A DNA stretch of 55,803 nucleotides, from positions 1-55,803 of the IMG/VR virus record IMGVR_UViG_3300016472_000794; one strand, written 5' to 3'. The notes beneath the pieces are model-generated. The model was given only the letters and a program-made list of their open reading frames with translations, did no database searches and was not told the origin of the DNA. Positions 27,506 through 53,087 of the stretch are shown one piece after another (within the stretch, counting starts at the first letter, position 1; each line of letters begins with the position of its first letter). This DNA is from a virus. Lineage: Duplodnaviria > Caudoviricetes. The position numbers were made by a program, and so were the translations under genes.

Positions 27506-28195
27506 ATGAACAGCAACGGCGCCCTGACTGCGGTGCGCAAGATCCTGCAGGGCATCAATCCCGACACCTTCCTGCGGGCGCCGCCGGAGGTCTGGGCGAA
27601 CATCCGCGGAAATTTCAGGCAGATTGGGTCAGGCGCGGCGAAGACGGTCTACGAGACGCCCATCGCGCCCCATCTGGTTTTTGTCGACACGGGCCCGCAT
27701 CAGGGCCAGGATCTGTTTCGCGCTTTCGCCCGCGACATCCATGCGAGCGGCGATCCGCTGGCGAAACACTTCCCGAAGATCATGGACGAGGTGCAGCTCA
27801 GCCCCTCTTGGATTCGCTACGCCACGGAGCGCCTTGAGCGAGGGAACGGTGTCAGGTCGCGCTCATTTCGGCTCGATCCGAACGGCGACAATGTCCTTGG
27901 CATCGACCCGACCCACCCGCAGTTCACGTCTCTGAACCAGGCGCTGCTGGAGATGGATCGCTATATGGAGCCCCGCGGCTGGGGGTCATCGCGCGGCTAC
28001 GACCTGCATTCGGCCAACTTCATGCGTCGTCCGCCCGGGCCAGAGGAGTTCTACAGCGGCGCGCCGCGCGATCCTGATGGGACCATCGTCATCAACGATC
28101 CGGTGTACTCCGTGCTGCTGGGTCTGGGCGGCGCCGGGGCGCTCGGCGCTGCGGCGAGGCAGCGTGACGGCGGCGGAGCGCGGGCCCGGGCGTGA
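27506..28195 (+). CDS. Protein kinase-like (T7 gp0.7-like), tagged-cargo family
   Basis: IGSGAAKTVY, HFPKI, ERL, DLHSANFM, IVINDPV motifs; terminal tags GALTAVRK and LGGAGALGAAARQR. Confidence 0.75.
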   Translation: MNSNGALTAVRKILQGINPDTFLRAPPEVWANIRGNFRQIGSGAAKTVYETPIAPHLVFVDTGPHQGQDLFRAFARDIHASGDPLAKHFPKIMDEVQLSPSWIRYATERLERGNGVRSRSFRLDPNGDNVLGIDPTHPQFTSLNQALLEMDRYMEPRGWGSSRGYDLHSANFMRRPPGPEEFYSGAPRDPDGTIVINDPVYSVLLGLGGAGALGAAARQRDGGGARARA

Positions 28196-29568
28196 CGCTC
28201 GAAATCACGATCCCCACACGACCCGCCCGCCCCTACCAGCGTAAGTTCTGGCGCTACATGGAGGGTGGCGGCAAGAACGCGTTCCTGGTCTGGCCGCGCC
28301 GACACGGCAAGGACGAGGCGGCGATGGCGTGGACCGCCGCCGACGCCATGCAGCACCCCGGAAACTACTGGCACTGCCTGCCGGAGTACGAGCAGGCGCG
28401 CAAGGCGCTCTGGGACGGCATTGACGCCAAGACCGGCATGCGGCGTCTCGACCAGATCTTCCCGCCCGAGATCGTCACGCGCCGGCGCGACAAGGACATG
28501 ATGCTGGAGCTGACCAGCGGTTCGACCTGGCAGCTCATTGGGTCGGATCGCTACAACCAGCTCGTCGGCGCCGGCCCGCGCGGTCTGGTGATGAGCGAAT
28601 ATGCGCTGAGCCACCCTGCGGCTTGGGCCTATTTCCGGCCGATGCTGCTCGACAGCGGCGGGTGGGCGATCTTCAACACCACGCCGCGCGGTCGCAACCA
28701 TGCCTACAAGCTCTTCCACGAGCACCAAGATGACCCGGAATGGTTCTGCGAACGCCTGACGGCGAACCAGTGCGGCGTCTTCACCGAGCAGGAACTGGAA
28801 CGCGAGCGGCGCGAATACCAGCTGGAGCTGGGCGTCGACGACGGCGACGCAAAGTTCAGGCAGGAGTATCTGTGCGACTGGAACGCGGCCATCGTCGGCG
28901 CCTATTATGCGCGCGAGATGGCGGCTGCGGAGAACGAAGGCCGTATCTGCGACGTCGCCTATGACCCCGGCCTTCCCGTCTACACCGGCTGGGACCTGGG
29001 TCGTCACGACAGCACCACGATCTGGTTCGTGCAGCGGTGCGGCGGCCAGATCCGGGTGATTGACTGCGAGACCGCAACCGGGGTCGGTCTGGACGCCTAC
29101 GCCAAGCTCCTGAAGGACAAGCCGTACGTGTACGCCACGCACTACTGGCCTCACGACGGCGCCCAAGGCGATGTTGGCATCATCGGGGGGCGCACGCGCG
29201 TCGAGGTCATGCGCGGCCTGGGCGTGACCCCTATCGAGGTGCTTGACCGAGAGCTGGACGGGATCGCCGACGGCATTCAGGCGGTGCGCCGCATCCTGCC
29301 GCGCTGCTTCTTCGACCGCACCCGCTGCAAGCTGGGGATCGACGCCCTGATCCAGTACCAGCGCAAGTGGGACGACAACGCCAAGACGTTCGCCAACACG
29401 CCCATGCGGAACTGGGCGACTCACTTCGCCGACGGCTTCCGGACCCTGGCCATGGGGCTGCCGACGCAATTCATCCCCGCCCCTGCGCAGGGTGAGTCCG
29501 ATCCGCGCTATAAATCGAGGGGTCGTGGCTCCAGGCGCGGGGGTTCTTCGTCGCGCTGGGCATTCTGA
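28192..29568 (+). CDS. terL: Terminase large subunit
   Basis: WPRRHGKD, SEYAL, NTTPRGRNH, WDLG..DST, HFADGFR. Confidence 0.95.
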   Translation: MTLEITIPTRPARPYQRKFWRYMEGGGKNAFLVWPRRHGKDEAAMAWTAADAMQHPGNYWHCLPEYEQARKALWDGIDAKTGMRRLDQIFPPEIVTRRRDKDMMLELTSGSTWQLIGSDRYNQLVGAGPRGLVMSEYALSHPAAWAYFRPMLLDSGGWAIFNTTPRGRNHAYKLFHEHQDDPEWFCERLTANQCGVFTEQELERERREYQLELGVDDGDAKFRQEYLCDWNAAIVGAYYAREMAAAENEGRICDVAYDPGLPVYTGWDLGRHDSTTIWFVQRCGGQIRVIDCETATGVGLDAYAKLLKDKPYVYATHYWPHDGAQGDVGIIGGRTRVEVMRGLGVTPIEVLDRELDGIADGIQAVRRILPRCFFDRTRCKLGIDALIQYQRKWDDNAKTFANTPMRNWATHFADGFRTLAMGLPTQFIPAPAQGESDPRYKSRGRGSRRGGSSSRWAF

Positions 29569-29577
29569 GAGGCGTCG

Positions 29578-30096
29578 ATGCCGGTTCCGCTGGACATCCT
29601 TGGTCGGTTCGTGGTGGCGCGGCGGGAATCCGGCGTGCTGGTCGAGGCGGACGATCTCGCCCGCAGCGCATCGGCCACGTTCACGCCGGCGGCCACCTCG
29701 CATCTGGCGGGAGACGTGGTGGGCGGCGCCCGGGAGTTCCAGCTCGCCGCACCGACCGGCCGCCTTTTCCAGATCGACACCGTCTCGCTGCTCATCAACA
29801 ACGCGACCATCGAAACCACGGCCTGGGCGCTGCATCTCTACTCCGTGACGCCGCCGTCTGCCCTGGCTGACGATGCTGCGTTCGATGTGCCGGCTGGCGA
29901 CCAGGCGTCCTATCTGGGATCGATTGCGATCCCGCAGGTAGTCGATCTGGGGTCGACGCTGTGGATTGAGAGCCACAACATCGGCAAGAAGGTGAAGCTC
30001 GCCGGGACCAGCGTATTTGGCTATCTGGTCAACGGCACGACACTGACCCCGGGCGCGGTGGCGCACATTGTCACGATTGCGGGCAGACCCATCTGA
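29578..30096 (+). CDS. Putative virion structural protein (beta-rich)
   Basis: Between terL and portal; Thr/Ala-rich beta pattern. Confidence 0.55.
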   Translation: MPVPLDILGRFVVARRESGVLVEADDLARSASATFTPAATSHLAGDVVGGAREFQLAAPTGRLFQIDTVSLLINNATIETTAWALHLYSVTPPSALADDAAFDVPAGDQASYLGSIAIPQVVDLGSTLWIESHNIGKKVKLAGTSVFGYLVNGTTLTPGAVAHIVTIAGRPI

Positions 30097-32483: not shown

Positions 32484-32519
32484 GCTGCGGTATAACCGAG
32501 TGAACCCAAGGACCATCGC

Positions 32520-33071
32520 ATGGACATGAAAGTCATCCGCCTCGCGCCAACGCTGATCGAGCTGCGTCTCGGCGGCGAGCCCATCGCCCGCGCCGAAGCC
32601 GGCCCGCTTCTGGTGGAGGTCGACAAGGCGACGCCCGAGCTTCTCTCCGACGAGAACACGGCGCCCTACTATCACCGCGGCGGCTTCGACAAGTTCGGCC
32701 GCCTCATCGTCATCGACGAGTACGAGGGCGACGTCTACGGGCCCAACCGCGTCGACGGGTTCGGCAATGAGCTTCCCAACAGCGGCCCGCTGCTCCAGCG
32801 CGGCTCCGGCGCGAAGGTGAAGGACGGCCAGCCGTTCGCCTACCTCGACCGCTACGCCGATCCGGTCTGGCACATCTACGAGTTCTGCACCGAGGAGTGG
32901 ACCGGCCCGAACACGCTGGTGGTCGACGAGGCCGGCGAGCCGGTGCTCGACGCCGACGGCAAGCTGACGGTGGTGCTGGGGCCGGCGTGGCGTCGCCGTG
33001 GCTGGCGCGCAACCGAGGGCGAGGCCGTGGCTGTCGCCGCCAACATCGTCGCAACCCGCGCCGGGAGCTGA
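32520..33071 (+). CDS. Hypothetical protein
   Basis: AAGGA RBS; strong GC3 bias. Confidence 0.65.
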   Translation: MDMKVIRLAPTLIELRLGGEPIARAEAGPLLVEVDKATPELLSDENTAPYYHRGGFDKFGRLIVIDEYEGDVYGPNRVDGFGNELPNSGPLLQRGSGAKVKDGQPFAYLDRYADPVWHIYEFCTEEWTGPNTLVVDEAGEPVLDADGKLTVVLGPAWRRRGWRATEGEAVAVAANIVATRAGS

Positions 33072-33074
33072 TCC

Positions 33075-33443: not shown

Positions 33444-33466
33444 GTCGCCGCTCATAGGGGCGCGCC

Positions 33467-35572: not shown

Positions 35573-35582
35573 GGAGGATGCG

Positions 35583-36017
35583 ATGCAGCAGATGAGCGAA
35601 GGCGCGCTGGCGGCGTTGCGCCGAGCAATGGGCATGTATGGCCCGCAGAGCGGCGACTCTGCGGCGGGGCCTTCGCTGGACGCCGGCGTCAATCGCGATC
35701 CGATGCGCGCAAATCCGGTCTATGGCGCCCAAGAACCGCTCCTTCCCCCGTCAGCTCCCGCTCCTTCCCCCGCCGCGCCCTCACCCGCCTCCCCGTCGGC
35801 GCTTGCGTCTCCGGCTCAGCCGGCGCTGAACCGCACGGCCTTCGACCCTGCCGACCCGGTGGTTGCCCGCGCCGGCCGCATTCTGCAGGAGGCGCGCCGC
35901 ATGGGCGACGTCTCGGCGACCACGCTGCAGACCCTGGTCGACGAGCTGTTCTCTTACCTGCCCGAGCCCCAGCGCAAGGCGATCACCTACCGCGCCATTG
36001 AGATGGCCGTTGGTTGA
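35583..36017 (+). CDS. Hypothetical protein, tagged-cargo family (N-terminal tag)
   Basis: GAGGAGG RBS; begins MQQMSEGALAALRRAMG. Confidence 0.65.
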   Translation: MQQMSEGALAALRRAMGMYGPQSGDSAAGPSLDAGVNRDPMRANPVYGAQEPLLPPSAPAPSPAAPSPASPSALASPAQPALNRTAFDPADPVVARAGRILQEARRMGDVSATTLQTLVDELFSYLPEPQRKAITYRAIEMAVG

Positions 36018-36646
36018 TGGGGACGATGGACGCCCTGCGCCGCGCCGCGTCGCTGGTGGCGGATCGCGCGTCGGTCGCGTTGCAGCGAGATCCCCTGACG
36101 GATCTCGTTCTTCGGGCGTCTGGCTTGCCCAAGGTGTCTGCGAGACGGTTTGTCGACTCGGAGGGTGAGCGGGTTCGCCATTACTCCGCCCTGCTCGATC
36201 CCCATGCGATGCTGATCGTCAACGTGACGCGCGAGAAGAGGCTGTTGCCCTCCGTGTCGTGGGATATCGGGCGCAACGATGTTTCGATGGGTCAGATTCC
36301 GCGTCCGGAGCGGGTTCGGCTGGCGCGCGCCGCTGCCGATCTGCTGCCTGAGATTCTCAAGGCCGACAGCCGTCGGCATATGACGACCGCCTATACGTTC
36401 CTGCCCATGGACACCGCAGGGTTTTCGCGCGGCGATTCTGCGTCGCGTATGCGGCTGTATCGGGGGCTGACCGAGCGGGCCGGAAAGGACTGGTCATTCG
36501 TGGAGCCGCGCGATGACAAGCCGCGCATCGTCTGGTCGCCAGCTCTGGGTAAGGACATCGCGGACGGCCTCGCTTCGACGGCCCTCCCCGCGGGTCTTGG
36601 CGCGGCGACCTATGGCGCGCTCGATTACTATGGACGCCCGCGCTGA
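36014..36646 (+). CDS. Hypothetical protein (possible GNAT-like fold), tagged-cargo family
   Basis: MGTMDALRRAA; YTF...SRMRLYR motif; C-terminal AGLGAATYGALDYYGRPR. Confidence 0.6.
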   Translation: MMGTMDALRRAASLVADRASVALQRDPLTDLVLRASGLPKVSARRFVDSEGERVRHYSALLDPHAMLIVNVTREKRLLPSVSWDIGRNDVSMGQIPRPERVRLARAAADLLPEILKADSRRHMTTAYTFLPMDTAGFSRGDSASRMRLYRGLTERAGKDWSFVEPRDDKPRIVWSPALGKDIADGLASTALPAGLGAATYGALDYYGRPR

Positions 36647-37238
36647 TGGGCCTCTTCTCCGCTCTCTCGCGCGCGCGGTTGCCGCTCGGTCGTCTCTCCG
36701 GCGGTGCGATGGGTGTTGCAGACAGCATGCGCCCGCAGTCGGTGATGGAATCGATGTTCCGGTCGCCGGGCGCCGATGCGGTGGAGGGCGCTGTCCGCGC
36801 GTCTATCGAGCCGAGGCCCGGCAATCTTAATCCCTAGTTCGCAATCTAGGGTCGCGACACCAGCCGCTGGACCCCTGCGACATTCGCACGGCGTCTCTCG
36901 CGGCAGGCCAAGACCCCGATCCCGTCGGCCCGTGGGCCTATCGCGACCAGATGGAAGCGATGTGGAGGGCTGGCGCAACCGACCGCGAGGTGGGGCGCGC
37001 CTTCGGTCTGAGCAATCAGTCCGCGTTCACCTGGCGCAAGCAGTGGGGCGTGCCGCCGGGCAGTCAGCCCGCGATCCCGTCGCGCAAGGCGACGCCGCGC
37101 GATCTGGTGCTGGACTACACCGCGCACCTGGAGGACGGCGCGCGGCCCTTCGACGCCCACGGCAAGATGGCGGATGACTACGGCTACGAGCACGGCTCGC
37201 TGTCGCGACAGGATCAGCATTATGGAGTTGCGGCGTGA
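36646..37238 (+). pseudogene. Frameshifted HTH-containing gene, tagged-cargo family
   Basis: MGLFSALSRAR ORF stops at 36837. The -1 frame opens at 36831 and encodes ...WRAGATDREVGRAFGLSNQSAFTWRKQWG (HTH) up to 37238. Confidence 0.5.
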
Positions 37239-37358
37239 GGGTTCTCGATTCGCCGCGCTGAAAGCGTCGACTCAGTTTCGCGCCGTAGTCTCAGCGCACA
37301 CGCCGCGTCACGCGGCCTGCGCCGGACGCTGCGGAGTGCGTCGACCTGAGTTGAGACC

Positions 37359-38465
37359 ATGAACGCCGATTTGCGTGAAACCATGAATGCCCTCATGACC
37401 CGCAGCGAGCCGCCCGCCGGTACGCCTGCGGCGCCTGGCGAAGGCGCGCCATCCAACGCCAGCACTCCGACGCACATCGGTGCAGCCCCGCCCGCATCCG
37501 TTCAATCCCCGCCGGCAGCGCCGCTCTCCGCAGCCCCGCCCGCCGGGGCGCCCGTCGCGCCCGCCGGGACACCTGCGGCGCCGGCCGGCAGTCCGCCGCC
37601 GCTCAGCTATGAAGAACTGCACGCGCGCACCGGGGACCTGCGCGTTGCGCTGGGCCAGGCGCGCCAGCAGCTGCGCGTACGCGACCAGACCATCGAAGAC
37701 ATGCGCACGCAGATGCAGGCCATGGCGGCGCAGGTGCAGGCGCTTGCGGCGAGTCAGCAGGCGCAGCAACAGCAGGCGCAGCAACAGCAGCAGCCGGCCC
37801 TGACCTTCGTCGACCCGAACGCGATCCCGAGCGATCCGCTGTCGGCCCTGGAGCAGATCGCCATCGGCTACAACGCCCTGCTCCAAGAACGTGTGGAGGC
37901 GGATCGACAGTTCCGCCTGCAACAGCAGGCGCAGCAGGAGCGCGCGCGGATTGAGGCGGCGCAAAGCGCTGGCCTGCAGGCTGCAGCCAATGCGCTCATC
38001 GCCGCCGAGCAGGACTTCAAGGCGCTCGTGGCGCCTGACTACGACCTCGCCGCCGAGCACTATGTGCAAAAGCGCATTGAGATGCTGGAGCTGTCTGGTG
38101 ACACGCGCGAGAACGCAGTGAACGCGGTGCAGTGGGAATTGCTGCGCAACGCCGATCTTGCCCAGCGCCAGGGCATTGATCCGGCGCGCGCGATCTATGA
38201 GGCGGCGATCTCCATGGGCTATCAGCCGCGTCGCATGCCCGCCCCCGCGCCCAGCTACGCACCGCCTGTGCAGACCGGCGTCGATCCGCGCCTCGCCAAC
38301 ATCCAGGCCGGACAGCAGGCGGCGAGCCCGATATCGGCCGCGCCGGGTGGCGGCGGGTCCGGCAACCCGCTCGACCTCGCCGCGATCAACGGCTTGTCTG
38401 GCGCCGCATTCACCAGCGCCGCGCAGAAGATGCTGCGCGCGATGCGCGGCCTGCCGACAAACTAG
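37359..38465 (+). CDS. Capsid scaffolding protein
   Basis: Pro/Ala-rich N-terminus, Gln-rich coiled coil, PDYD.A..HY...DPA..IYE.A...GY; just upstream of the capsid gene. Confidence 0.75.
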   Translation: MNADLRETMNALMTRSEPPAGTPAAPGEGAPSNASTPTHIGAAPPASVQSPPAAPLSAAPPAGAPVAPAGTPAAPAGSPPPLSYEELHARTGDLRVALGQARQQLRVRDQTIEDMRTQMQAMAAQVQALAASQQAQQQQAQQQQQPALTFVDPNAIPSDPLSALEQIAIGYNALLQERVEADRQFRLQQQAQQERARIEAAQSAGLQAAANALIAAEQDFKALVAPDYDLAAEHYVQKRIEMLELSGDTRENAVNAVQWELLRNADLAQRQGIDPARAIYEAAISMGYQPRRMPAPAPSYAPPVQTGVDPRLANIQAGQQAASPISAAPGGGGSGNPLDLAAINGLSGAAFTSAAQKMLRAMRGLPTN

Positions 38466-38717: not shown

Positions 38718-39809
38718 ATGTCTCAAAATCACTACCTGACGGGCGATCCCGAGGTGATGAAGTTCTGGTCGAAGCTCGTCCAGACTGAAGCCCTCAAGTC
38801 GACGCAGATGTTCAAGTATTTCGGTGACGACGAGCGCTCGCTCGGCGTTATCCAGTCCGGCCTGTCCAAGGGTGCGGGCGACCGCGTGTCGATGCCGCTG
38901 CGCATGCGCCTGACCGGCGCGGGCGTCACCGAGCTGATGCCGCAGGAAGGCAACGAAGAGGCGATTGTCTCCTACATCGACAACATCACTATCAACGAGC
39001 TGAGCCACGCGGTGCGCCGCCACAAGGGCATCTCCGACCAGCGCGTGCCGTGGGATGTGGGTCTGCAGCTGAGCCAGGCGCTGACCGACTGGTGGGCGGA
39101 GCGCTTCGACGAGATCTGCTTCAACCACCTGTGCGGCTACACGCCGGTGAACGACACCCGCTATACGGGCTTCAACACCGTGCAGGCGCCGTCCTCGGGT
39201 CGCCAGATCTGGTGCTCGACCTCGAACACCACCGACCAGTCGCTCGGCACGTCCGACATCTTCTCGCTCACCCACATCGACCGGGCGCGGGAAATCGCCA
39301 CCACCGGCGGCTCCGGCGGCCTCGTGCGCATGCGCCCGATCAAGGCCTCCATGGCCGACGGCGGCTACGGCGATATGTATGTCTGCTTCCTGCACCCGAG
39401 CCAGGTGACCCAGCTGCGCCAGGGTTCGTCCTCGCAGTGGAAGGAGATCCAGAACAACCTCCTGCAGGGCGGCTACATCCGCGAGAACGGTCTCTTCACG
39501 GGCGCCCTTGGCGTCTACAACAAGACGGTCCTCGTCGAGAGCGAGTTCGTCATGCAGGGCGTCAACTCGTCCACCGGCGCCGCCGTCTCCAACACCCGCC
39601 GCGCGGTCTTCTGCGGCGCCCAGGCGCTGGGCGCGGCCTTCGGCAAGGGCTTCGGCCCGCAGGAGGCGAAGGTGACCGAGGAGCTGTTCGACTACAACCG
39701 CGAGGTTGGCCAGAACCTCCTCAACATCTTCGGGGTCAAGAAGAGCCGCTGGAACAGCATCGACTACGGCACCATCGTGCTGTCGTCCTACGCCGCCCCG
39801 GCCGCCTGA
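38718..39809 (+). CDS. Major capsid protein (N4-gp56/DUF4043-like)
   Basis: LSKGAGDRV...L...L.G.GV...EGNEE, HAVR, YVCFLHPSQ..QLR, LFTGALGVYN, RAVFCGAQA, EELFDY, GVKKSRW. Confidence 0.92.
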   Translation: MSQNHYLTGDPEVMKFWSKLVQTEALKSTQMFKYFGDDERSLGVIQSGLSKGAGDRVSMPLRMRLTGAGVTELMPQEGNEEAIVSYIDNITINELSHAVRRHKGISDQRVPWDVGLQLSQALTDWWAERFDEICFNHLCGYTPVNDTRYTGFNTVQAPSSGRQIWCSTSNTTDQSLGTSDIFSLTHIDRAREIATTGGSGGLVRMRPIKASMADGGYGDMYVCFLHPSQVTQLRQGSSSQWKEIQNNLLQGGYIRENGLFTGALGVYNKTVLVESEFVMQGVNSSTGAAVSNTRRAVFCGAQALGAAFGKGFGPQEAKVTEELFDYNREVGQNLLNIFGVKKSRWNSIDYGTIVLSSYAAPAA

Positions 39810-42496: not shown

Positions 42497-43336
42497 ATGG
42501 CGCTTCCTCCCCTCCCCAAGGTGACAGCTGGCGCGATGGCGGCGCTGTCGCGCCTGCGCCCGTCTGCGGTCGATCCCTATCGCTGGCAGATGCTGGTGCA
42601 GAACGAAGCAGGCGGCGCGCGGCGCCTGATCGATACGATGCGCAAGGGGCATTCATCGTTCAGCGATTCGTCGAAGAACTGGGAGTTTCTGGGCTACGCG
42701 ACGCCAGACGGCGCCTCTAGGCTCAAGACGGACCATAGCCGGATGAGCGTGGGGCTGCCGTTCGTGCCCGCTGACACGGAAGGTCCTCTGATTTTTCACC
42801 ATTCCCATCCGCGCACCGGCTACGCGCCCGCCCTTCTCTCAGTCCCTGACATCAGCGCAACCTTCATGGCCGCCGGCGGGCGCGATCCACGGGGCGTTTC
42901 TGCGGTCGACCGGTATGGCGGCTACAATGCGCTCCTGCGTCACAAGGAAATGCGCGGCGCCAACCTCCCGAAGTCTCTTGTTTTCGATGTGATGCGGGCA
43001 GCCCGGGCAATGACCGACGGCGTGCCGCCTGTCTACGATGGTGAATACACATTTCGGGCGGGCGATTTCATCATGAGCATGGCGATCCAGGATGCGCTGG
43101 AGCGCGCTGGCGCGGCGCGTGCGGTTCGCGCCTTTGATGTCGATCCCTCGGCGCAATTCGCGGCGCCGCTGGCGGACCTGGAGCCTATTGCGGACGATGG
43201 CGTTCATCGCTGGCTGCGCGACCTGGGTGTCAGTCCACAGGCGCTCAAGGTGTGGAGCGCGCCCGCGGTCGCGGGCGGCGGGGCGCTTTCGGCGCTCTCG
43301 CGCGAGGAGCGGCAGCCATCCAGATCCCGCTCGTGA
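42497..43336 (+). CDS. JAB/MPN-like metalloenzyme, tagged-cargo family
   Basis: WE...FHHSHP...LSVPD JAB motif; tags GAMAALSR and AGGGALSALSREER. Confidence 0.65.
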   Translation: MALPPLPKVTAGAMAALSRLRPSAVDPYRWQMLVQNEAGGARRLIDTMRKGHSSFSDSSKNWEFLGYATPDGASRLKTDHSRMSVGLPFVPADTEGPLIFHHSHPRTGYAPALLSVPDISATFMAAGGRDPRGVSAVDRYGGYNALLRHKEMRGANLPKSLVFDVMRAARAMTDGVPPVYDGEYTFRAGDFIMSMAIQDALERAGAARAVRAFDVDPSAQFAAPLADLEPIADDGVHRWLRDLGVSPQALKVWSAPAVAGGGALSALSREERQPSRSRS

Positions 43337-43347
43337 TAGGATGAGAC

Positions 43348-43998
43348 ATGACGACCCGCGCCATCATGAAGACCAAGATCGCCAACGAACTGGCGCGCGC
43401 GGATCTTGACGCCGAGATCGGCGACGCCATCGCCACAGCCATCGATTTCTATCGCTGGAAACGCTTCTGGTTCAACGAGGTGGAGTCCGCCACGTCATCG
43501 ACGTCCAACGGCGTCGAATACTACGATCCTCCGGCGAATTTCCTTAGCGTCGACTTCATCAAGGGAACGCTCGGCGGCCAGACCTGGCCGCTGGAGGAGC
43601 AATCCAACCTCCTTCTGCGCGACTATCGCGCCACCGACGCCAACCAGAGCGGGCGGCCCTTCTACTGGGCCAAGGCCAACGCCCAGTTCCGGCTCTGGCC
43701 GATCCCTGACGACATCTACACGCTGACCTGGTCGGGCCTTCTCGATGTGGCGCCGACGAGCGACAGCGAGACCGACAACCCCTGGATGACGTATGGCGAG
43801 GCGCTGATCCGCGAGCGCGCCCGCGCCGAGGTGCGCATCAATGTCCTGCGGGCGGCGCCCGCAATTCAGGAGGCGGCGCAGCTCGCCTTGGCCGGCGAGG
43901 AGGCGCTGACCATGATCGAGAAGGCGGTCCATCGCCGCCTATCTTCCCAGTCGCGCAAGCGGACCAATACCGGCCGCATTCGCCCGAGCACGTACTGA
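43348..43998 (+). CDS. Head-tail adaptor protein
   Basis: IANELAR.DL..EI.DAI..AI, RFWFNE, GRP.YW, RLWPIPD..YTL, N.W...GEALI. Confidence 0.8.
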   Translation: MTTRAIMKTKIANELARADLDAEIGDAIATAIDFYRWKRFWFNEVESATSSTSNGVEYYDPPANFLSVDFIKGTLGGQTWPLEEQSNLLLRDYRATDANQSGRPFYWAKANAQFRLWPIPDDIYTLTWSGLLDVAPTSDSETDNPWMTYGEALIRERARAEVRINVLRAAPAIQEAAQLALAGEEALTMIEKAVHRRLSSQSRKRTNTGRIRPSTY

Positions 43999-43999
43999 C

Positions 44000-45166
44000 A
44001 TGGGCGTGATGAATATCCTGCGCTCGGCGCGGCGCGCGCTGCGGCCTGACACGACCGCCGCCGCGACCTTCCTTGGCCCGAGCGCGAGGACGTTCGACTG
44101 GGACCGTCTCATCACGGCCTGGCGCGGCGAGCTTGCGGGCGAGGATCGCTACAAGCTCTGGCGCGACACGATGACCACGCGCGCCGGCAATGGCGCATGG
44201 CATCAGGAAATCTCGGACCACGGCGCGGAGTCGACGTTCGACGCGGCGCTGCGCGGAACCGATCCGCGCACGCCGCACTGGGCGCGCATTCGCGACATCC
44301 TCCATCACCCGGGTCTGGAGGCCGCCTATGGCGACCGCCTCATGGCCTTGCCGGTGAAAATCATGGAGCAGCGCCCGAATGACCACCTCCCCGACGCGGC
44401 GATGGTCCTGCGGGGGCGCGACCTCACGCCGGTTGAGATGCGCTTCGGGCGCGGGTTCGCCAATGACCGACCGCACGAGATTTTTTCCGGCAAGCGCATT
44501 GCGCTGCACGAGACCCAGCATGGCGTGCAGGCCCTGGACGGCACGCCCATCGGCGACACCCCGCAGAGGCTGTTTGATGAGGCGACGCAGGCGCAGGCGC
44601 AGCGTCGCTATCTGGAGGCCATCGACCAGGCGCGCACCTATCTCGCGCGCGGCATGGCCGAAAACCCCGCCGAGGCGCTGAGCATGGCGCAGGCGCCGCC
44701 GGCGCGCATCCCCGTGCTGGTCAATAACTGGGACTCCGTCATGCGCGGGCTTGATCGCGATCTCGCGCGGGCGCGGGCCAACCCCTATGCCAACGTCGGC
44801 GATCCGGCGAAATTCGCCAATGAAGGGTACTTGGGCTCTGAGGGCGAACGAGATGCCCGATTGACTCAGGAGAGCGTCGATCTGACCGACGCCAAGCGCG
44901 CCGTCTTCCCGCCCTGGGTGCGCATGCGCTATCTCGGCTATGGCCCAGTGCAGGATGAGCGCAGCCTGATCGTTCACAGCCCGCCTGGGCATGTCGACAA
45001 AAACCAGCGCGCCATCGTCGGCCGCATCCTGCAGGATGACGCCATCGGTCGCGCGCTTGCGGATCTGGTCCGCGCTTCGGCGGCGGGCGGAGGCGCCGCC
45101 TCCGCGCTCGCCATCGCTGATCGCGCGCGCCAGGCGCAGGATCGGCGCCGGGAGTTCGCCGCATGA
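44000..45166 (+). CDS. LPD23-like plus HExxH metallopeptidase domain protein, tagged-cargo family
   Basis: W..T...R..NG.W..EISD, L.HP.L..AY, LHETQHGVQ, Y...GE.DAR; tags GVMNILRS and AGGGAASALA. Confidence 0.7.
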   Translation: MGVMNILRSARRALRPDTTAAATFLGPSARTFDWDRLITAWRGELAGEDRYKLWRDTMTTRAGNGAWHQEISDHGAESTFDAALRGTDPRTPHWARIRDILHHPGLEAAYGDRLMALPVKIMEQRPNDHLPDAAMVLRGRDLTPVEMRFGRGFANDRPHEIFSGKRIALHETQHGVQALDGTPIGDTPQRLFDEATQAQAQRRYLEAIDQARTYLARGMAENPAEALSMAQAPPARIPVLVNNWDSVMRGLDRDLARARANPYANVGDPAKFANEGYLGSEGERDARLTQESVDLTDAKRAVFPPWVRMRYLGYGPVQDERSLIVHSPPGHVDKNQRAIVGRILQDDAIGRALADLVRASAAGGGAASALAIADRARQAQDRRREFAA

Positions 45167-46617
45167 GAATCCCCTTCTCCGCCTGGACACCGGACGCCGC
45201 GGTGCTTGGTCGTGGCCGTCTGCGGGAGGCGCGCAACATCATTCCGCGCGCCGAGCACTATGAGCCGTTCTACAATCTGGTGACGAGCGGCGCCGCGCTC
45301 GATGCGCGCGGACGCGGGCTTGCGGCCTACAAGGACCAGGCCGGGGTCGCTCACCAGTATGCCGGCGACGCCGCGAAACTGTACGAGCGGGCCAGCGACG
45401 GCACCTGGTCCGATGTCAGCAAGGTTGGCGGCTATACGAGCACCGAAAGCTCCCGCTGGCGGTTCGCCCAGTTCGGCGATCTGTGCCTCGCCACGAATGG
45501 TCAGGACCCAGTGCAGTCTGTCGCAATGTCCGGCGCGCCGGGCTTCGCAAACCTTGCGGGCTCGCCGCCTGTGGCGCAGTTCATTGCAGCGTTCGACAAT
45601 TTCGTCTTTCTCGGCAATCTCGGCAGCAGCGCCTTCGGCTATCGCAACAGCTCGATCAATGACGCGACTGCCTGGGTCAATGGCGTCGACCAAGCGTCCG
45701 AGGGCGAGTTTCCAAAGGGCGGCGAGATCACGGGGCTTGTGTCCAACACGACCTCCCTCTTCTTCTTTCAGCAGACCATGATCCGGCGGGCGATCTACAC
45801 CGGCGGCCCGCTCATCTTCGACATTCAGCCCATCGAGGAAGAGCGCGGCTGCGCGGCGCCCGGGAGCATTGCAAGTTTCGGACAGTTCACCTTCTTCCTG
45901 GCGGAGGACGGGTTCTACCAGCTCACCGACGCCGGCGCGCAGCCCATCGGCGACGGGGTCGTCGACAAGTGGTTTCAGGCGGATTCACAGCGCGATTTCT
46001 GGTACCGGATGTCGAGCACCATTGACCCGTTCAACAAGCTCTACATCGTCGCGTACCCCTCGACGTCCAGCGTCAGCGGCGCGCCCGACTCGCTGCTGAT
46101 CTATAACTGGACGGTCGGGCGGTTCGCTTATGCGCGCCTGCCTGTGGAGGTGCTCTCCAGCATCATCGCGCTGTCGACGACACTGGAGGATCTCGACGCG
46201 ATCTACGGCAATCTCGACGCCATCCCGATCTCCCTGGATGACCCGCTGCTCTCCGGCGGCGTGCTGACGCTCGGCGCCATCGGCGCCGACCGAAAGCTCG
46301 GCTCCTTCTCCGGCGCGGCGCTGGAGGCCCTGATTGAGACGGATGATGTGCTTGGTCCTGAGGGCCTGGTGCAATTCATCACGGGCGTCATGCCGATGTC
46401 GGATGCGGCGCAGGCTTACGCCGCCGTCGGCGCGCGGATGCGTTCTGCGGACGCGGTGACCTGGTCGACGGAGCGCGCGATGCACCCGCGCTCCGGCGTC
46501 TGCCCTGCCCGCGTGAACGCGCGCTGGGCGCGGTTTCGCCTGCGCCTGCCCGCCGCCACGCAATGGTCGAAACTGGAGGCGCTGGAAGTCTCCATTGGTC
46601 TGGATGGAGAGGTCTGA
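45163..46617 (+). CDS. Tail nozzle / DNA stabilisation protein (P22 gp10-like)
   Basis: WTPD, WRFAQFG, RGCAAPGSI, FFLAEDGFY, PIG...VDKWF; beta-propeller-like. Confidence 0.8.
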   Translation: MRIPFSAWTPDAAVLGRGRLREARNIIPRAEHYEPFYNLVTSGAALDARGRGLAAYKDQAGVAHQYAGDAAKLYERASDGTWSDVSKVGGYTSTESSRWRFAQFGDLCLATNGQDPVQSVAMSGAPGFANLAGSPPVAQFIAAFDNFVFLGNLGSSAFGYRNSSINDATAWVNGVDQASEGEFPKGGEITGLVSNTTSLFFFQQTMIRRAIYTGGPLIFDIQPIEEERGCAAPGSIASFGQFTFFLAEDGFYQLTDAGAQPIGDGVVDKWFQADSQRDFWYRMSSTIDPFNKLYIVAYPSTSSVSGAPDSLLIYNWTVGRFAYARLPVEVLSSIIALSTTLEDLDAIYGNLDAIPISLDDPLLSGGVLTLGAIGADRKLGSFSGAALEALIETDDVLGPEGLVQFITGVMPMSDAAQAYAAVGARMRSADAVTWSTERAMHPRSGVCPARVNARWARFRLRLPAATQWSKLEALEVSIGLDGEV

Positions 46618-46715
46618 TGGCGTCGCCGATTGGACGTGTTGCCGGGGAGCTGACGGGCGGCGCGGGCGGCGCACTTGGCGCGCTCAACGCGCAAAGCGAG
46701 CGGCGTCAGGCATAA
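46617..46715 (+). CDS. 32-aa tag-only micro-ORF (not in the ORF track)
   Basis: MASPIGRVAGELTGGAGGALGALNAQSERRQA; TGATG coupling and GGAGAGG RBS. Confidence 0.6.
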   Translation: MASPIGRVAGELTGGAGGALGALNAQSERRQA

Positions 46716-46735
46716 TAGCGCGCAGGGAGGTTTTC

Positions 46736-47299: not shown

Positions 47300-47610
47300 C
47301 AGCGTCGCGGCAGATCCCCCCGACCGGCGCCGTATCGCCGCGTCGTCTCGCTGATGCGATCAACGCCGCGCTGCAGGGGCGTATTGAATCACGCGGGTCC
47401 GTGACCCTGACGGCCGGCGCAACCACCACGACGGTCGATCATCCGCTGGCCCATGCGGAGAGCGTGATCCTGCTGATGCCCACGACGGCCAACGCCGCGG
47501 CGGCGCTCGCCAATGTCTATGTCTCCGCCAGGGCGAGCCGAACCTTCACGCTGACGCACGCCAACAATGCGCAGGTCGACCGCACGTTTGAGTTCATGGT
47601 GCTGGGATGA
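47296..47610 (+). CDS. Small tail structural protein
   Basis: AINAALQGRI...G.VTLTAGATTTTV...FTLTHANN..DRTF; position after the nozzle gene. Confidence 0.7.
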   Translation: MTASRQIPPTGAVSPRRLADAINAALQGRIESRGSVTLTAGATTTTVDHPLAHAESVILLMPTTANAAAALANVYVSARASRTFTLTHANNAQVDRTFEFMVLG

Positions 47611-48017
47611 CGGTCACCGGCAGACTCTTTGGCGCAATGGGCGCCCTGCTTCGCCGACGCCTTGCGCAACCCGGATGGGCGGAGCATGAGCGCCTTTGGC
47701 GTGCGGCGTTTCTTGATCGACTCGCCAAGGAAGCATCTCGACCGTCGCGCCAAAGGTTGGTTGAGGATCTCGCGAACGGTGTGTCGCGCATGGATTCGCG
47801 CCAGATTGCGATTTTGCCCGCAGACTATCCGTTCAATGACGCAGAGCTGGCGATCTACGTGCCCATGGCGCGGGCGAGATACCGCCTCCTCTCAGACTGG
47901 CAACGCGCAAACAGGGAGTCGTATTCGCCGTCGCTCTCTCCGGCCCTCTATCTTGATGACGACGTGAAGCCCGATCCGTTTGAATATGATTTCCCCAAGC
48001 CATCAATCTGGTCCTGA
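47607..48017 (+). CDS. Hypothetical protein, tagged-cargo family (N-terminal tag)
   Basis: FGAMGALLRRR; ATGA coupling. Confidence 0.55.
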   Translation: MTVTGRLFGAMGALLRRRLAQPGWAEHERLWRAAFLDRLAKEASRPSRQRLVEDLANGVSRMDSRQIAILPADYPFNDAELAIYVPMARARYRLLSDWQRANRESYSPSLSPALYLDDDVKPDPFEYDFPKPSIWS

Positions 48018-48073
48018 GCGTCGCGCTCCGCGGGCCGCTTACGATGACGCTCCTGTCCCACCGAGTCGTCTTC

Positions 48074-48883: not shown

Positions 48884-48890
48884 GGACGCC

Positions 48891-50213
48891 ATGACGGGAT
48901 CTTCCCGGCCCGCCACGACCACCGTCAGTCAGCAGCAGACGAACGAGCCCTGGTCCGGCGCTCAGCCCGCGCTGAACCTCGCCATGGGCTCGGCGATGTC
49001 GACCTTCAACCAGGGTCCGCCGCAGTATTATCCCGGCAACACCGTCGCGCCGTTCTCGCAGCAGACCGTGTCGGGCATGAACGCGATCCAGAACAACGCC
49101 CAGATGACGGCGCCCTGGGCGCAGACGGCGGCGGGCGGCATCAACGGCATTCTCGGATCAGGGCCGACGCCAGGGACCGGATTTGCGGCCGGCGTCGCCA
49201 GCGGCTTCGGCGCGCGCAATCCGTTCATGGGCGCCACTGCGGCGGCGGCGCGTACACCGAACGCGGGCCTTCAGGCGCTTTCGCCGTGGATGACCGGACA
49301 GGCTGGCGCGAACCCCTTCATCGGCCAGATCGGTAACATTGCCGGCCGGCCGGTGTCCGGCATCGGCACCGATACACTGACCCAGGCCGCAGGCGGCGGT
49401 TTCATCAACAACCCGTTCCTTGACCAGGCGGTGGGCCGCGCGACCGACGCGGTGCGCCAGAACGTCAGCACGATGTTCGCCCGCGGCGGACGGTTTGGGT
49501 CCAGCGCGCACCAGGACGTTCTGCAACAGGGCGTCGGCGACGTCGCCAGCCAGATGTACGGCCAGGCGTACCAGAGCGACATGGCCAACCGCATGGGTGC
49601 GGCGGGCCAGCTCGCCGGCTACGAGCAGGGTAATGTCGACCGGCAGCTGCAGGCGGCCAATGCGCAGGCGGGGCTTGCCGAACAGGGAATCGGGCGCCAG
49701 TACGATGCCGCGACCCTGATGCCCGCCTATTTCGAGCAGGGCCTCAATCGCGCACTGAGCGGCTTTGGTCAGGCTGGCAACATGTTCTCCACCGGCGTCA
49801 ATCAATCCCTCGGCGCCTTCGGCGCTCTGGGCGACGATTTCGCCTCGCGCTCGGGCACGACCCTCAACGCCATCGGCGCCATGCCGGGCGTCTACGACTT
49901 CGCCAATCAGGGTGCGCGCGACATCATGGGCGTGGGCTCGATGCTGGAGGGCTACGACCAGGCCCAGATCGACGCCGACCGCGCGCGCTGGGATTACACC
50001 CAGAACGCCGACCGCTCCAACATCGAGTGGCTCAACGCCATCGCGACCGGCCAGGGGCAGCTTGGCGGCACCAGCTACGGAACGCAGCAGGTGCCGTTCC
50101 AGCGGCAGAATCCCTTCTTGCAGGGCGTGGGCGCACTGGGTAGCATCGGCTCCCTCTTCTCTTCTTCGGCGGGCGGCACGTCCGCCATTGCGGGGATGTC
50201 CGCCTTCCTGTGA
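48891..50213 (+). CDS. DNA ejection/pilot protein
   Basis: GAGGA RBS; TTTVSQ..NEPW..AQP, YYPG.TVAPFS, NPF repeats, GRFGSSAH; Gly/Gln/Ala-rich. Confidence 0.75.
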   Translation: MTGSSRPATTTVSQQQTNEPWSGAQPALNLAMGSAMSTFNQGPPQYYPGNTVAPFSQQTVSGMNAIQNNAQMTAPWAQTAAGGINGILGSGPTPGTGFAAGVASGFGARNPFMGATAAAARTPNAGLQALSPWMTGQAGANPFIGQIGNIAGRPVSGIGTDTLTQAAGGGFINNPFLDQAVGRATDAVRQNVSTMFARGGRFGSSAHQDVLQQGVGDVASQMYGQAYQSDMANRMGAAGQLAGYEQGNVDRQLQAANAQAGLAEQGIGRQYDAATLMPAYFEQGLNRALSGFGQAGNMFSTGVNQSLGAFGALGDDFASRSGTTLNAIGAMPGVYDFANQGARDIMGVGSMLEGYDQAQIDADRARWDYTQNADRSNIEWLNAIATGQGQLGGTSYGTQQVPFQRQNPFLQGVGALGSIGSLFSSSAGGTSAIAGMSAFL

Positions 50214-50932
50214 TGCTGCCTCCCGAAGTCGACACCGCGCTGCATTTCGGCGGCGGCAAGGACAGCCTCGCCACGCTCTATCTGATGCGGGCGCGGTGGC
50301 CGAACCTTGTGGTGGTCTGGATGAATACGGGCGCGGCGTTCGAGGAGACGCGCGCGCAGATGGCGGCGGTGGCCGCCATGGTGCCGCACTTTCTGGAGGT
50401 GCGCAGCGATGTCATCGCCGACATCGCCGAGCACGGGTGGCCGGTCGACGTCGTCCCTGTCTCGCACACCGCGCTTGGCAAGCAGCTGACCGGCGCCGAG
50501 GGGCCCACGCTCCGGCCGTGGACGGAATGCTGCGCCAGCAACATCTGGTTGCCCATGTATGCGCGCATGCGCGAGCTGGGCATCAAGCGCATCATCCGCG
50601 GGCAGCGGAACGACGAGCCGTATCGCAACCGCAACCTGCGCGACGGCCTGGCGCTGGACGGCTTCATCTATGAGTTCCCCCTCGCCCAGTGGAGCGAGGA
50701 CGAGGTGTTTCGATATCTCGATGCCCTAGGCGTTGGTGTGCCGGCCTATTACGACGAGGTGAAATCCTCGCTCGACTGCTGGTGCTGCACGGCCTTTCTC
50801 GACGTCAAGGATGCGCAGGTCCGTTATCTGCAGCGCCACCATCCGGAGCGCTATACTGTGGTCGCGGCGGCGCTCGCCGCAGCGCGAGACGCGGTTGCGG
50901 ATGCGAGCGCTCCGTTGATGGAGGAGGTCTGA
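50210..50932 (+). CDS. PAPS-reductase-family (PP-loop) protein
   Basis: FGGGKDS, NTG, ECC, IRGQR..E, PL..WS..EV..YL, SLDCWCC. Confidence 0.85.
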   Translation: MMLPPEVDTALHFGGGKDSLATLYLMRARWPNLVVVWMNTGAAFEETRAQMAAVAAMVPHFLEVRSDVIADIAEHGWPVDVVPVSHTALGKQLTGAEGPTLRPWTECCASNIWLPMYARMRELGIKRIIRGQRNDEPYRNRNLRDGLALDGFIYEFPLAQWSEDEVFRYLDALGVGVPAYYDEVKSSLDCWCCTAFLDVKDAQVRYLQRHHPERYTVVAAALAAARDAVADASAPLMEEV

Positions 50933-52023
50933 TGGGGGCGACAGACTTTGGTGTTCGCGCCGCGCTGCGGCGGGCGGCGCAGGAGGCGGTGCGGCAGCGT
51001 CCCTATGGCGGCGGGCGTCCCGTCATGACCATCGAGCTGAACACCATGCTGCGCGATCCCGGTCGCCGCGCCGCGGAGGCCTTCGCCCGCGCCCGCGCGG
51101 CGGGCGACCCCATGGCGGAGCAATACACGGCCGGCCTTATCCGCGAGATGGAAGACCCCCGCACCAGGGCGGCGTTTGCTGCGGCGCTGGAGGAGGTGGC
51201 GGGCCTGCCCATGCCGAAGGACGCTTATCGCGCGCCGACAGTGCGCGATCCCCTCTCCTCGGCCGGATCGTATGACGGCGCCCTCGCGCCCAACCTCCGG
51301 ATCTCGCTGCCGCCGGACGTCGACATGGACAGGGCGCGGCGGCTCAATGCGGTGCTTGGGCGTGAGCTTGACCAGGCCGCCATGGCGTTTTCGACCCGCC
51401 GCGACGCCTCGCTGTTCGATCCGCCCGGTCCAGACTCGATGCGCGCCTACGGCATTCACGCCGCCTCCGACGGCCCTCTGTCGCCGGATGTGGCGCGCGA
51501 CGTCATGCGCGACCTGCCGGACAATGCGCTCTCGACTTGGCGCAGCGGCCCGCGTTCCTATGTAATGGATATCCACCCCTCCTACGGGGCGGATGGCCCC
51601 GTTGCGCCGGATCTTGGCGCCGTCAAGGGCGCGGCCCAGAATGCTTTCGGCCGGCGCGGCCTGCCCTATCAGGTGCAGGGCGCCGACATCGACTTGCCCC
51701 GGTCGGACTATGTGGAGGCGGAGGACTATGCAGGGCGAATGGCGCCCCCCGACGCCGGAGGAGCTGGCGGGCCTGCCGCTGACCTCGGTGGCGGATTTGC
51801 GCGCGATCCAGCGGGCTCGGGACTCCAATACCCTCGTACCGCCGAGGGATTTCGAGCGCTCCGTGCGCGCCTCGACGCCCGCTGGCAGGCGTTTGCTGAC
51901 GAGATTGCGCGCCGTCATGGCGAGGGCGCCGCTGTGGCGCTGCTTACGGCTCTGGGCGGCGGCGGCGCTCTGGCGGCGTCGCAGCGCGCGCGGGCCGATG
52001 CGCCGACGCTGAGCGCCGCATGA
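50932..52023 (+). CDS. Hypothetical protein, tagged-cargo family
   Basis: GGAGGAGG RBS; GVRAALRRAA and LGGGGALAASQRAR tags. Confidence 0.65.
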   Translation: MGATDFGVRAALRRAAQEAVRQRPYGGGRPVMTIELNTMLRDPGRRAAEAFARARAAGDPMAEQYTAGLIREMEDPRTRAAFAAALEEVAGLPMPKDAYRAPTVRDPLSSAGSYDGALAPNLRISLPPDVDMDRARRLNAVLGRELDQAAMAFSTRRDASLFDPPGPDSMRAYGIHAASDGPLSPDVARDVMRDLPDNALSTWRSGPRSYVMDIHPSYGADGPVAPDLGAVKGAAQNAFGRRGLPYQVQGADIDLPRSDYVEAEDYAGRMAPPDAGGAGGPAADLGGGFARDPAGSGLQYPRTAEGFRALRARLDARWQAFADEIARRHGEGAAVALLTALGGGGALAASQRARADAPTLSAA

Positions 52024-53087
52024 GCGCCGGCGGCTTCCGACGCGCGCTGGCCATCGCCGCGAGATCAGCATCCCCCCTGGAGGCGCTGAACACGCCCCTC
52101 CGCGCCACAACCATGGGGGCGCAGAAGGCGCTGGCGCGCTACAAGCCGCGCAAGGTGCCTGAGCGCATGCGGGATCTCGTGACGAACCCCGAGGTCGAGC
52201 GGCGCATGAACAATGCGATTGAGGAGGGCCGCTCCCTCAGGGCGGATCGCTGGTACGACACCGCGCCGCTCCTTGCGGCGTTCATCAAGGAGCTGGGGCC
52301 GACCGAGGGCAAGGCCGCGTTCGCCCGCTACGCCGACATTGTCGGCCTCACCTCCCCCGGCACAAGCGTGCCGGAGAACCTGCGGCGCGCCTCCTGGGTC
52401 TATGGGCTCGACCGCCGCGGCGAGGCCATGCCCGCCCACGCGCCCTCGCCCTATGGCGTGATGACGGAGAAGACGCAGCGCGGGCTGCTGGACAGCTATT
52501 TCTCGGGCAAGGGATTCCCGCTGACCGCCGCAAAGACCGCGAGCTTTGCGCAGAACGTCCGCGGCAACCAGACGCCCGTTTCCCTCGACCGGCATGCGCT
52601 GCGTCTGCCGGCGATCTTCTCGGGCGACAAGCGGTTCCTGCAGAATTCGGTGCAGGTCGCCGACGACAGTCCGGAGGGCATGACCCGCATCAATCCGCGC
52701 AAGCTGGTCGATGCGGGCCTCATGAATTTCGCGGACGCCTTCGAACAGCCCGCCTACTGGTCCGCGCGCCCTCGCCCGACCGAATACGCCGCGCTGGAGC
52801 AATACTACAGCGACCTCGCCGAGCGACACGGGCTGACGCCTGCACAGGCGCAGGCGGCGGCCTGGGTCGGCGGCGCCGACATCACGGACGTGCGAGACGC
52901 CCGCCCGCTTCTGGAGGCGTTCAAGGATCGCCTAGGCGTGACGGCGCGCGAACGCCAGATCTCCGAGGAAGACGCACTCAGCCGCATGATCCGCGGCGAG
53001 CAGCCGCTGCTCTCGGTTGCGGGCGCGCTTGGCGGCGCGGGCGCGCTTGGCGCCGTGCAGAATGAGCGTCGGTCGCGCCGCGCGTGA
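52020..53087 (+). CDS. HhH DNA-glycosylase-like protein, tagged-cargo family
   Basis: WY, TSP...V..N, KT.SF..N, V.LDRHALR, Y...E.YY..LA...GLTPAQAQAAAWV; C-terminal GALGGAGALGAVQNERR. Confidence 0.65.
   Translation: MSAGGFRRALAIAARSASPLEALNTPLRATTMGAQKALARYKPRKVPERMRDLVTNPEVERRMNNAIEEGRSLRADRWYDTAPLLAAFIKELGPTEGKAAFARYADIVGLTSPGTSVPENLRRASWVYGLDRRGEAMPAHAPSPYGVMTEKTQRGLLDSYFSGKGFPLTAAKTASFAQNVRGNQTPVSLDRHALRLPAIFSGDKRFLQNSVQVADDSPEGMTRINPRKLVDAGLMNFADAFEQPAYWSARPRPTEYAALEQYYSDLAERHGLTPAQAQAAAWVGGADITDVRDARPLLEAFKDRLGVTARERQISEEDALSRMIRGEQPLLSVAGALGGAGALGAVQNERRSRRA

Follow-up and report, generated by a model that had tools for sequence, protein, structure and literature searches.

Why should a series of small late phage proteins with unrelated cores have similar ends? 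This question is raised by the late operon of the phage in IMG/VR virus record IMGVR_UViG_3300016472_000794, in which about 10 accessory late proteins have a short peptide, designated here as the N-tag or the C-tag, at the N-end, the C-end or both; five of them have both. The window, which is the whole stretch of DNA that was analysed, is the complete record of 55,803 bases (CheckV 100% complete, G+C about 67%), and the phage is podovirus-like. Early or lysogeny-type genes (NinB, helix-turn-helix regulators, a C5 methylase, and an AAA ATPase) are located in the left 26 kb, and one plus-strand late operon extends from 26.6 kb onward. The tags are conserved, they are attached to unrelated cores, and they are encoded in the late operon by accessory genes. 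Our analysis favours, tentatively and with a little less than an even chance, that they are virion-loading or ejection labels by which accessory enzymes would be packaged and injected. Injected phage proteins act before phage gene expression and are a main route past host defences, and to our knowledge the loading rules for such proteins are largely obscure outside T4 and P1.

The N-tag, G-[AVT]-[LM]-x-A-L-[RS]-R, begins eight late proteins. The C-tag, GG-x-G-A-L-x-A, was recognized in five proteins and in one 32-amino-acid (aa) open reading frame (ORF), 20–29 residues ahead of the stop. All terminal peptides quoted in an earlier note on this DNA are present at the genes named there (listed in Table 1). 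Two of them match the motifs weakly, one at the C-end of g36014 and the other at the N-end of g52020. With a leave-one-out matrix from the eight N-tag instances, a site at residues 2–12 was top-ranked in its own protein in seven of eight cases, and the N-tag of g27506 had rank 2 of 222. The corresponding C-tag matrix gave rank 1 in all five full-length proteins, 21–29 residues from the C-end, and rank 3 of 19 in the 32-aa ORF. At a threshold of at least 12 bits the C-tag matrix had nine matches; in 200 residue shuffles the mean number was 0.5 and the highest count 3. In a six-frame scan, all six C-tags were in the frame of their own gene, 19–27 codons before the stop, and the other five matches of at least 11 bits were located elsewhere.

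The enrichment was also seen in a comparison that uses no motif, in which the best 8-mer BLOSUM scores between termini (cut-off 24) were set against those of internal windows drawn 40 times at random from these proteins. Late N-termini gave seven pairs at or above the cut-off (internal windows: mean 1.5, maximum 4), and late C-termini gave 15 (mean 5.6, maximum 9). Early N-termini were not enriched, with three pairs (mean 1.7, maximum 4), while early C-termini gave seven (mean 2.8, maximum 6), a mild unexplained excess. The similarity of the ends described in the earlier note is confirmed.

The central domains are unrelated, as had been proposed: in an all-versus-all BLAST of the late proteins, alignments among the tagged ones are confined to the termini. 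Between the g27506 and g52020 tails identity is 59% over 22 residues, and between g50932 and g52020 it is 48% over 25 residues. At least 60 direct-repeat families were found, and the 20 largest all lie off the tags; Leu, Ala, and Gly codons vary between tag copies. The signal therefore lies in the peptide and not in the DNA, and sequence comparison places the tags under selection at the peptide level.

This claim, already made in the earlier note, is further supported by the homologues of the cargo proteins. A full HMMER search with g44000 found 289 proteins at E ≤ 0.001. Four of these, at 33–37% identity, keep the N-tag as MGV[LM]DIL (three full-length proteins and a 146-aa N-terminal fragment), and the C-tag, A.GGG..AL, is kept in all three full-length ones. 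The tag columns rank among the most conserved in the alignment; the other homologues have only the core in common. A homologue of the DUF7178 protein g52020 at 50% identity keeps PLLSVPVAGALGALAQER, and many of 17 DUF7178 homologues have a Gly/Ala-rich tail after IRGxxPLL. DUF7178 is also found inside proteins of 774–1286 aa in other viral contigs. When common N-terminal extensions were sought in these long-form loci, BLAST matched DUF7178 proteins alone. Scans with the g44000 alignment were negative for viral contigs and found a single 2-kb metagenome contig, from a closer relative, in which the order adaptor, tagged HExxH protein, nozzle is kept.

A wider motif is seen in more distant proteins. 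Among 32 distant stand-alone LPD23-peptidase proteins, the top M-x-x-L-x-[DE]-x-L site is within the first 12 residues in 11 proteins against 1.05 expected, and about nine of the 32 have an RGLL C-end when inspected by eye. When the matrix of this motif was applied to the window, the N-tag was the top site in four tagged proteins; the matrix also picked the N-termini of three untagged ones.

The arrangement of the genes indicates that the tagged proteins are additions to a core set. In 160 related loci, 80 viral (via the nozzle protein) and 80 prophage (via the capsid protein; hosts include Hyphomicrobiales, Methylobacterium, Bradyrhizobium, Brucella, and Bartonella), no tagged protein had a tblastn match. 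Core proteins were matched in the viral and prophage sets as follows: nozzle 80 and 69, capsid 1 and 80, portal 3 and 68, adaptor 8 and 58. In relatives, the portal, scaffold, and capsid genes abut, as do the adaptor and nozzle genes. Because those core genes lie back to back, the tagged genes of the window are insertions between them and, judged from this gene order, accessory. They are not always placed singly as had been stated: g35583, g36014, and g36646 are a run of three and g50932 and g52020 a pair. They are translationally coupled, as proposed, with nine of ten tagged ORFs starting −4 to +10 nucleotides (nt) from the upstream stop. Two junctions, at 46605–46620 and 50920–50935, each ahead of a tagged ORF, have the common sequence GAGGTCTGATGG, which could be a coupling cassette or an insertion trace.

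The exact motif is specific to the lineage, since the window-derived C-tag matrix found 24 matches in 137 related loci and only four of these were near a stop. Tag-like termini on different cargoes were found in three other phages. The first is a 72-kb IMG/VR contig (G001), in which six candidates begin with s-L-R-x-A-L-x-x-A-L. The leave-one-out top motif site is within the first 11 residues in four of the six. These candidates include an ART-PolyVal-like protein, a weak LPD23 match, and a DUF7178 protein; three have Gly/Ala-rich tails, and one is encoded directly upstream of the terminase genes, as g27506 is in the window. The second is a related locus (L019). Here the product of the gene that separates the SU10 adaptor from the nozzle is ART-PolyVal-like (E 1.1e-5, which falls below Pfam's cut-off) and has GTLGGGGAGLLSQGSDQ at its end. 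Its GGGGAGLL tail is of the C-tag kind, so that a tail of this type occurs once on another cargo at the same locus of a related phage, as the earlier note had anticipated. In the third, the cultured Microcystis phage MJing1, the head module contains a DUF7178 gene, flanked by a portal-sized gene and the capsid gene, and the DUF7178 protein and its upstream neighbour have GLLDD at the N-terminus and GxGLL at the C-terminus in common.

Each tagged protein is 63–388 aa long, has its own stop and start codons, and, where a domain family could be recognised in it, has no more than one. Pfam at E ≤ 5 gave no family for any of them except g52020. The homologues of g44000 match Pfam LPD23 at E 1e-12 to 1e-23, followed by HExxH, and H170, E171, H174, and E283 are nearly invariant. 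The same LPD23-peptidase core is embedded in classical polyvalent proteins of 5812, 5589, and 1200–2400 aa, in agreement with the note that had compared this cargo with polyvalent-protein domains. Its further description of the locus as a polyvalent protein in split form should be taken as an analogy only. The tags as polyprotein linkers were considered and rejected, because no such motifs are seen by eye at the domain junctions of the 5812-aa protein P0026.

The other two enzymatic assignments made earlier are less firm. The kinase call for g27506 is a lead only, in this case towards a T7-type protein kinase: its similarity to the Phage_T7_kinase cluster in the Atlas has a TM-score of 0.59 over residues 6–207, a range ending just before the C-tag. 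For g42497, a JAMM-type motif HSHP...SVPD is seen by eye and the Atlas scores for JAB are 0.82–0.83, which is weak, but Pfam (E ≤ 5) and PDB sequence searches were empty, and the JAB assignment is unconfirmed. A homologue search with g42497 returned only itself; its structural neighbours in the Atlas are domains in proteins whose clusters include MuF or minor-capsid families (TM about 0.5), a kinship that counts in favour of loading. PDB sequence searches with g42497, g27506, and g50932 gave nothing below E 0.2. No family was assigned to g35583, g36014, g36646, g47607, or g50932.

Predicted structures were available for two proteins. In the AlphaFold model of g44000 (predicted local distance difference test, pLDDT, 81), a short helix of pLDDT about 60 is formed by the N-tag, with a linker below 50 after it; a disordered stretch precedes the C-tag, itself a terminal helix (pLDDT 54–68). 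In the model of g52020 (pLDDT 85.8), the C-tag (residues 334–355) is below 50. Three of the four tags in the two models are peripheral or of low confidence. With the kinase-like range of g27506 ending before its C-tag, most tags therefore look like appended flexible elements in these predictions. A wide structure search with g52020 had as its top hit the 8-oxoguanine glycosylase Tm1821 (Z 10.8, root-mean-square deviation 3.5, 182 residues), and nearly all of the top 22 rows were HhH-GPD-type glycosylases or the related queuine-salvage DUF2419. An HhH-GPD glycosylase-like fold is thus a coherent lead for DUF7178 from its model, with the caution that Z below 13 requires for a helical protein. 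The wide search with g44000 was dominated by a helical hairpin; the best peptidase row was VgrG2b (Z 4.8, rank 14). With neither model did Foldseek reach a PDB match at E ≤ 0.001.

If the tags are loading labels, the N-tag, in the form G-h-[LM]-x-A-L-R-R, and the C-tag, GG-x-G-A-L-x-A with a basic tail, would be portable address labels. Late in infection they would bind accessory enzymes to some part of the particle under assembly, for which the scaffold, the inner capsid surface, the portal, and the ejection-protein complex are candidates. The metallopeptidase, the DUF7178 glycosylase-like protein, and the kinase-like protein would be loaded in this way, packaged, injected with the DNA, and would then act on the host. 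The routing into the procapsid, delivery ahead of phage gene expression, and role against host defences put forward in the earlier note are inferences of this kind. The major capsid protein counts as a candidate receptor and the putative scaffold as a candidate partner. There are hints of a receptor in the N-end of the scaffold (RETMNALMTR, a weak N-tag match of 6.7 bits on a long Pro/Ala linker), in the Gly-rich C-ends of ejection proteins, and in a G-x-L likeness to encapsulin peptides.

Several observations weigh against this reading. In G001, no sequence match to the capsid protein of the window and no P22-type portal family were found; because tag-like termini occur there without a matching capsid or portal, a single conserved head receptor is not obvious. 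No prohead protease family was detected in the Pfam and PHROG scans of 32 late proteins. The N-terminal helix of g52020 is predicted confidently (residues 11–20, pLDDT 97) and may be part of the fold, and the excess at early C-termini described above is of the same kind as the late one, if mild. Within each tagged protein, furthermore, the 19-residue stretch of highest hydrophobicity is the C-tag (Kyte-Doolittle 1.05–1.5), which fits a membrane role equally well.

This last property leads to a serious rival, which we consider unlikely: the tags would be membrane or ejection-conduit elements that hold the enzymes, packaged or not, at the inner membrane or the trans-envelope channel. The Gly/Ala/Leu-rich C-segment and its basic tail would be a weak tail anchor or a glycine-zipper helix, and the N-tag a cationic amphipathic helix that binds the membrane. 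Besides the hydrophobicity of the C-tags and the Arg-rich residues after them, this agrees with the similar Gly-rich hydrophobic tails of core ejection proteins here and in some relatives and with the tag-like termini of G001, a phage with a different capsid and portal. However, the hydropathy values are under the usual membrane-helix threshold of 1.6, and neither a signal peptide nor a second membrane segment is seen by eye. The ejection proteins are also divided: with the C-tag matrix 4 of 27 tails reach at least 8 bits (other ORF tails: 4 of 326), but most end in another domain.

Three other explanations are less likely than loading or membrane insertion. The resemblance between the two tags suggests mutual docking handles, N-tag with C-tag or like with like, which would assemble a non-covalent multi-enzyme chain, packaged or not. 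The N-tag matrix scores the g42497 end GALSALSR at 15.1 bits, and since it scores C-tags as well, both tags are variants of one G-A-L theme; in G001, the C-end of the DUF7178 protein fits the N-tag matrix of that phage at 9.7 bits. The five proteins with both tags and the two tiny ORFs that are little more than tags would also suit docking, yet four proteins have the N-tag only, and a common receptor explains the similar sequences at least as well. We regard docking as rather improbable.

Recognition or cleavage of the tags as propeptides by a phage protease, for example by the HExxH protein g44000, with cleavage activating or releasing the enzymes, appears distinctly improbable. The capsid-targeting sequence of T4 is removed by a protease, a metallopeptidase-type cargo is encoded among the tagged genes here, and autoproteolytic processing by such peptidase domains in polyvalent proteins has been proposed (PMC5512222). 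On the other hand, no conserved residue after the tags marks a scissile bond by eye, g44000 itself has both tags, and the scans that covered prohead proteases were negative. That the tags have no dedicated function, and reflect composition (the commonest four residues being A, R, G, and L), a common origin of the terminal helices, or remnants of cassette-recombination boundaries, is very unlikely: the early C-terminal excess and the occurrence of GAGGTCTGATGG at two junctions would be compatible with it, but the leave-one-out ranks and shuffle controls, the fixed and always in-frame distance from C-tag to stop, the retention of tags at 33–50% identity as the cores diverge, and the absence of a DNA repeat under the tags among the 20 largest families speak against it.

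The positions of the tagged genes and of the core late genes are given in Table 1.

Table 1. Tagged genes and core genes of the late operon, in order along the window
Feature	Coordinates	Strand	Length (aa)	N-tag	C-tag	Remarks
g27506	27506..28195	+	229	GALTAVRK 27518-27541	LGGAGALGAA 28124-28153	kinase-like
TerL	28192-29568	+				
P22-type portal	30096-32483	+				
g35583	35583..36017	+	144	GALAALRR 35601-35624	none	Pro/Ala/Ser-rich linker after N-tag, then small helical end
g36014	36014..36646	+	210	36020-36043	AGLGAATYGAL (weak, C-tag-like)	
g36646	36646..36837	+	63	MGLFSALSR 36649-36672	LSGGAMGVA (C-tag-like)	near tag-only
Putative scaffold	37359..38465	+	368			directly 5' of capsid gene
Major capsid protein	38718..39809	+	363			N4-gp56 family (PF13252)
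g42497	42497..43336	+	279	GAMAALSR 42530-42553	AGGGALSALS 43271-43300	orphan
SU10-type adaptor	43348-43998	+				
g44000	44000..45166	+	388	MGVMNILRS 44003-44026	AGGGAASALA 45083-45112	LPD23 + HExxH metallopeptidase; between SU10-type adaptor and nozzle
Nozzle/head-closure protein	45163-46617	+	484			phrog_3287, weakly phrog_578
32-aa ORF	46617..46715	+	32		GGAGGALGAL 46656-46685	C-tag only
g47607	47607..48017	+	136	GAMGALLR 47631-47654		
Core ejection protein	48888..50213	+	441			phrog_4287
PAPS-reductase-like protein	50210-50932	+				PF01507, E 8.7e-15
g50932	50932..52023	+	363	GVRAALRR 50950-50973	LGGGGALAAS 51952-51981	no known family
g52020	52020..53087	+	355	GGFRRALAIAARS (weak)	LGGAGALGAV 53028-53057	DUF7178

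Several starts require comment. The gene g27506 overlaps the start of TerL by 4 nt. The start of g36014 is likely the ATG at 36017, giving MGTMDALRR, and a database gene call starts g42497 at M14. The first 100 nt of g47607 have low GC at third codon positions and a codon-position GC that prefers another frame; its start is uncertain, and an internal ATG would give MGALLRR. The ORF at 46617 is separate and does not form the C-end of a long protein; its ATG overlaps the nozzle stop (TGATG). A fusion to the nozzle by programmed −1 frameshift was rejected: the frame is open, yet a search ahead of the ORF showed no slippery heptamer.

Other genes of the operon showed the following features. The core ejection protein has a hydrophobic Gly-rich C-end (GVGALGSIGSLF...) that is C-tag-like. 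The true start of this ejection gene is probably 48888; in parts of 48044–48883 codon-position GC prefers another frame, and the gene calls are uncertain. The PAPS-reductase-like gene is untagged amid ejection and cargo genes. At 53062–53110, a 655-aa core ejection-type protein has the N-end ...RDTLADMLSTR, resembling MATLADMLRG of the unrelated LPD23 peptidase P0029, and an ejection-region protein of L019 (L019:9719-11044) starts with MGLFDFLSAD, similar to MGLFSALSRA of g36646. The 701-aa g33467 (33467–35572), probably a fibre or decoration protein, has an N-terminal Gly_rich_2 domain and about 11–15 tandem 66-nt (22-aa) repeats at 34019–35019. BLAST aligns its tail (35530–35572) with that of a G001 protein (L141:15555-16001:-), both having an acidic stretch and then A-(L)-L-L-L-A-A.

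Large proteins rich in Gly, Ala, and Gln are encoded at the right end of the operon. The terminal ORF 55039–55803 exits the 3' end in frame with the 5'-open ORF 1–1452; if the record is circularly permuted, the two would form one Gly-rich ejection-type protein of about 738 aa. Prophage relatives of the capsid protein at 35–45% identity (L144-L223) come from many Bartonella genomes, Methylobacterium, Bradyrhizobium, Brucella, and Hyphomicrobiaceae, which suggests, from sequence similarity, an alphaproteobacterial host range for the phage group. Closer capsid homologues exist at 59–82% identity.

The loading reading may be extended to an undescribed, widespread cargo-address system of tailed phages, in which bipartite G-[AL]-L terminal peptides load small enzymes into the capsid, either through an encapsulin-like contact with the HK97 shell or through co-assembly with ejection proteins. 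Its lineage variants would be GALxALRR/GGxGAL in the window, sLRxALxxAL in G001, GLLDD/GxGLL in the cyanophage, and MxxLxDxL/RGLL in stand-alone LPD23 peptidases, and any small enzyme gene dropped between morphogenesis genes would become loadable. We hold this general form to be doubtful. If true, it would offer phages a modular way, without covalent fusion, to do what giant polyvalent proteins do, and encapsulins and phage cargo loading might be linked in evolution. Literature searches gave no account of terminal tags common to stand-alone polyvalent-type domains or to accessory proteins of podoviruses, which is not proof of absence.

With a short portable tag on many cargoes, sequence alone would be enough to predict injected effectors, and the way in which stand-alone polyvalent-type domains enter the host would be explained. 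Proteins of choice could also be loaded into podovirus particles by a simple handle, and, with the capsid interior as the receptor, phage and encapsulin cargo loading would be linked.

Among known systems, T4 is similar in that a short extreme N-terminal peptide is found on unrelated late proteins (IPI–III and Alt, including an ADP-ribosyltransferase), which it loads into the head for injection; in the window, eight unrelated late proteins have a common peptide at residues 2–12. There is no sequence likeness, and T4 has a prohead protease and a scaffolding core. The window, in contrast, is that of a podovirus, has a second, C-terminal tag, and has its genes scattered among morphogenesis genes.

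In P1, the first 30 residues of DarB suffice for capsid targeting of a reporter; the signal takes more than 9 residues and no more than 30, and targeting to the capsid is likewise the effect of the T4 sequence (PMC9024508). The Dar system resembles the window in having an N-terminal peptide, which in P1 routes an anti-restriction enzyme, and reporters, to the capsid (PMC9024508). It differs in having one large cargo and stepwise adaptor loading, with DarA-Hdf pairs bound at the inner capsid surface (PMC12810830), whereas many small cargoes are each tagged in the window; the Pfam and PHROG scans of the late proteins showed neither a DarA nor an Hdf homologue.

Encapsulin targeting peptides such as PLTVGSLRRGG and DGSLGIGSLKG have a conserved GSL motif and an anchoring Arg or basic residue, and bind the interior of an HK97-fold shell (PMC7925596). 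The tags of the window, compared by eye only, have a similar small-small-Leu core and basic residue (GALAALRR, GGAGALGA...R), and the capsid is HK97-type. The encapsulin peptides are mostly at the very C-end, in contrast to the C-tag, which lies 20–29 residues inward.

Polyvalent proteins are similar in their domains. LPD23 with a zincin peptidase, ART-PolyVal, truncated kinases, and DUF7178 fusions occur among them, and packaging and injection were predicted for the same domain families (PMC5512222; Iyer et al. 2017). Stand-alone kinases and small ORFs nearby are mentioned in the passages of that work that were consulted, whereas shared terminal tags are not. The LPD23-HExxH protein g44000 and the DUF7178 protein belong to the same LPD, MPTase, ART, and kinase repertoire. 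No late protein matched the Phage_Mu_F/MuF (SPP1 gp7) domain in Pfam, and none of the tagged proteins combines 2–15 unrelated domains in one polypeptide. Polyvalent proteins carry 2–15 domains per chain or a MuF portal-binding fusion, whereas the window encodes separate small proteins, each with its own tag.

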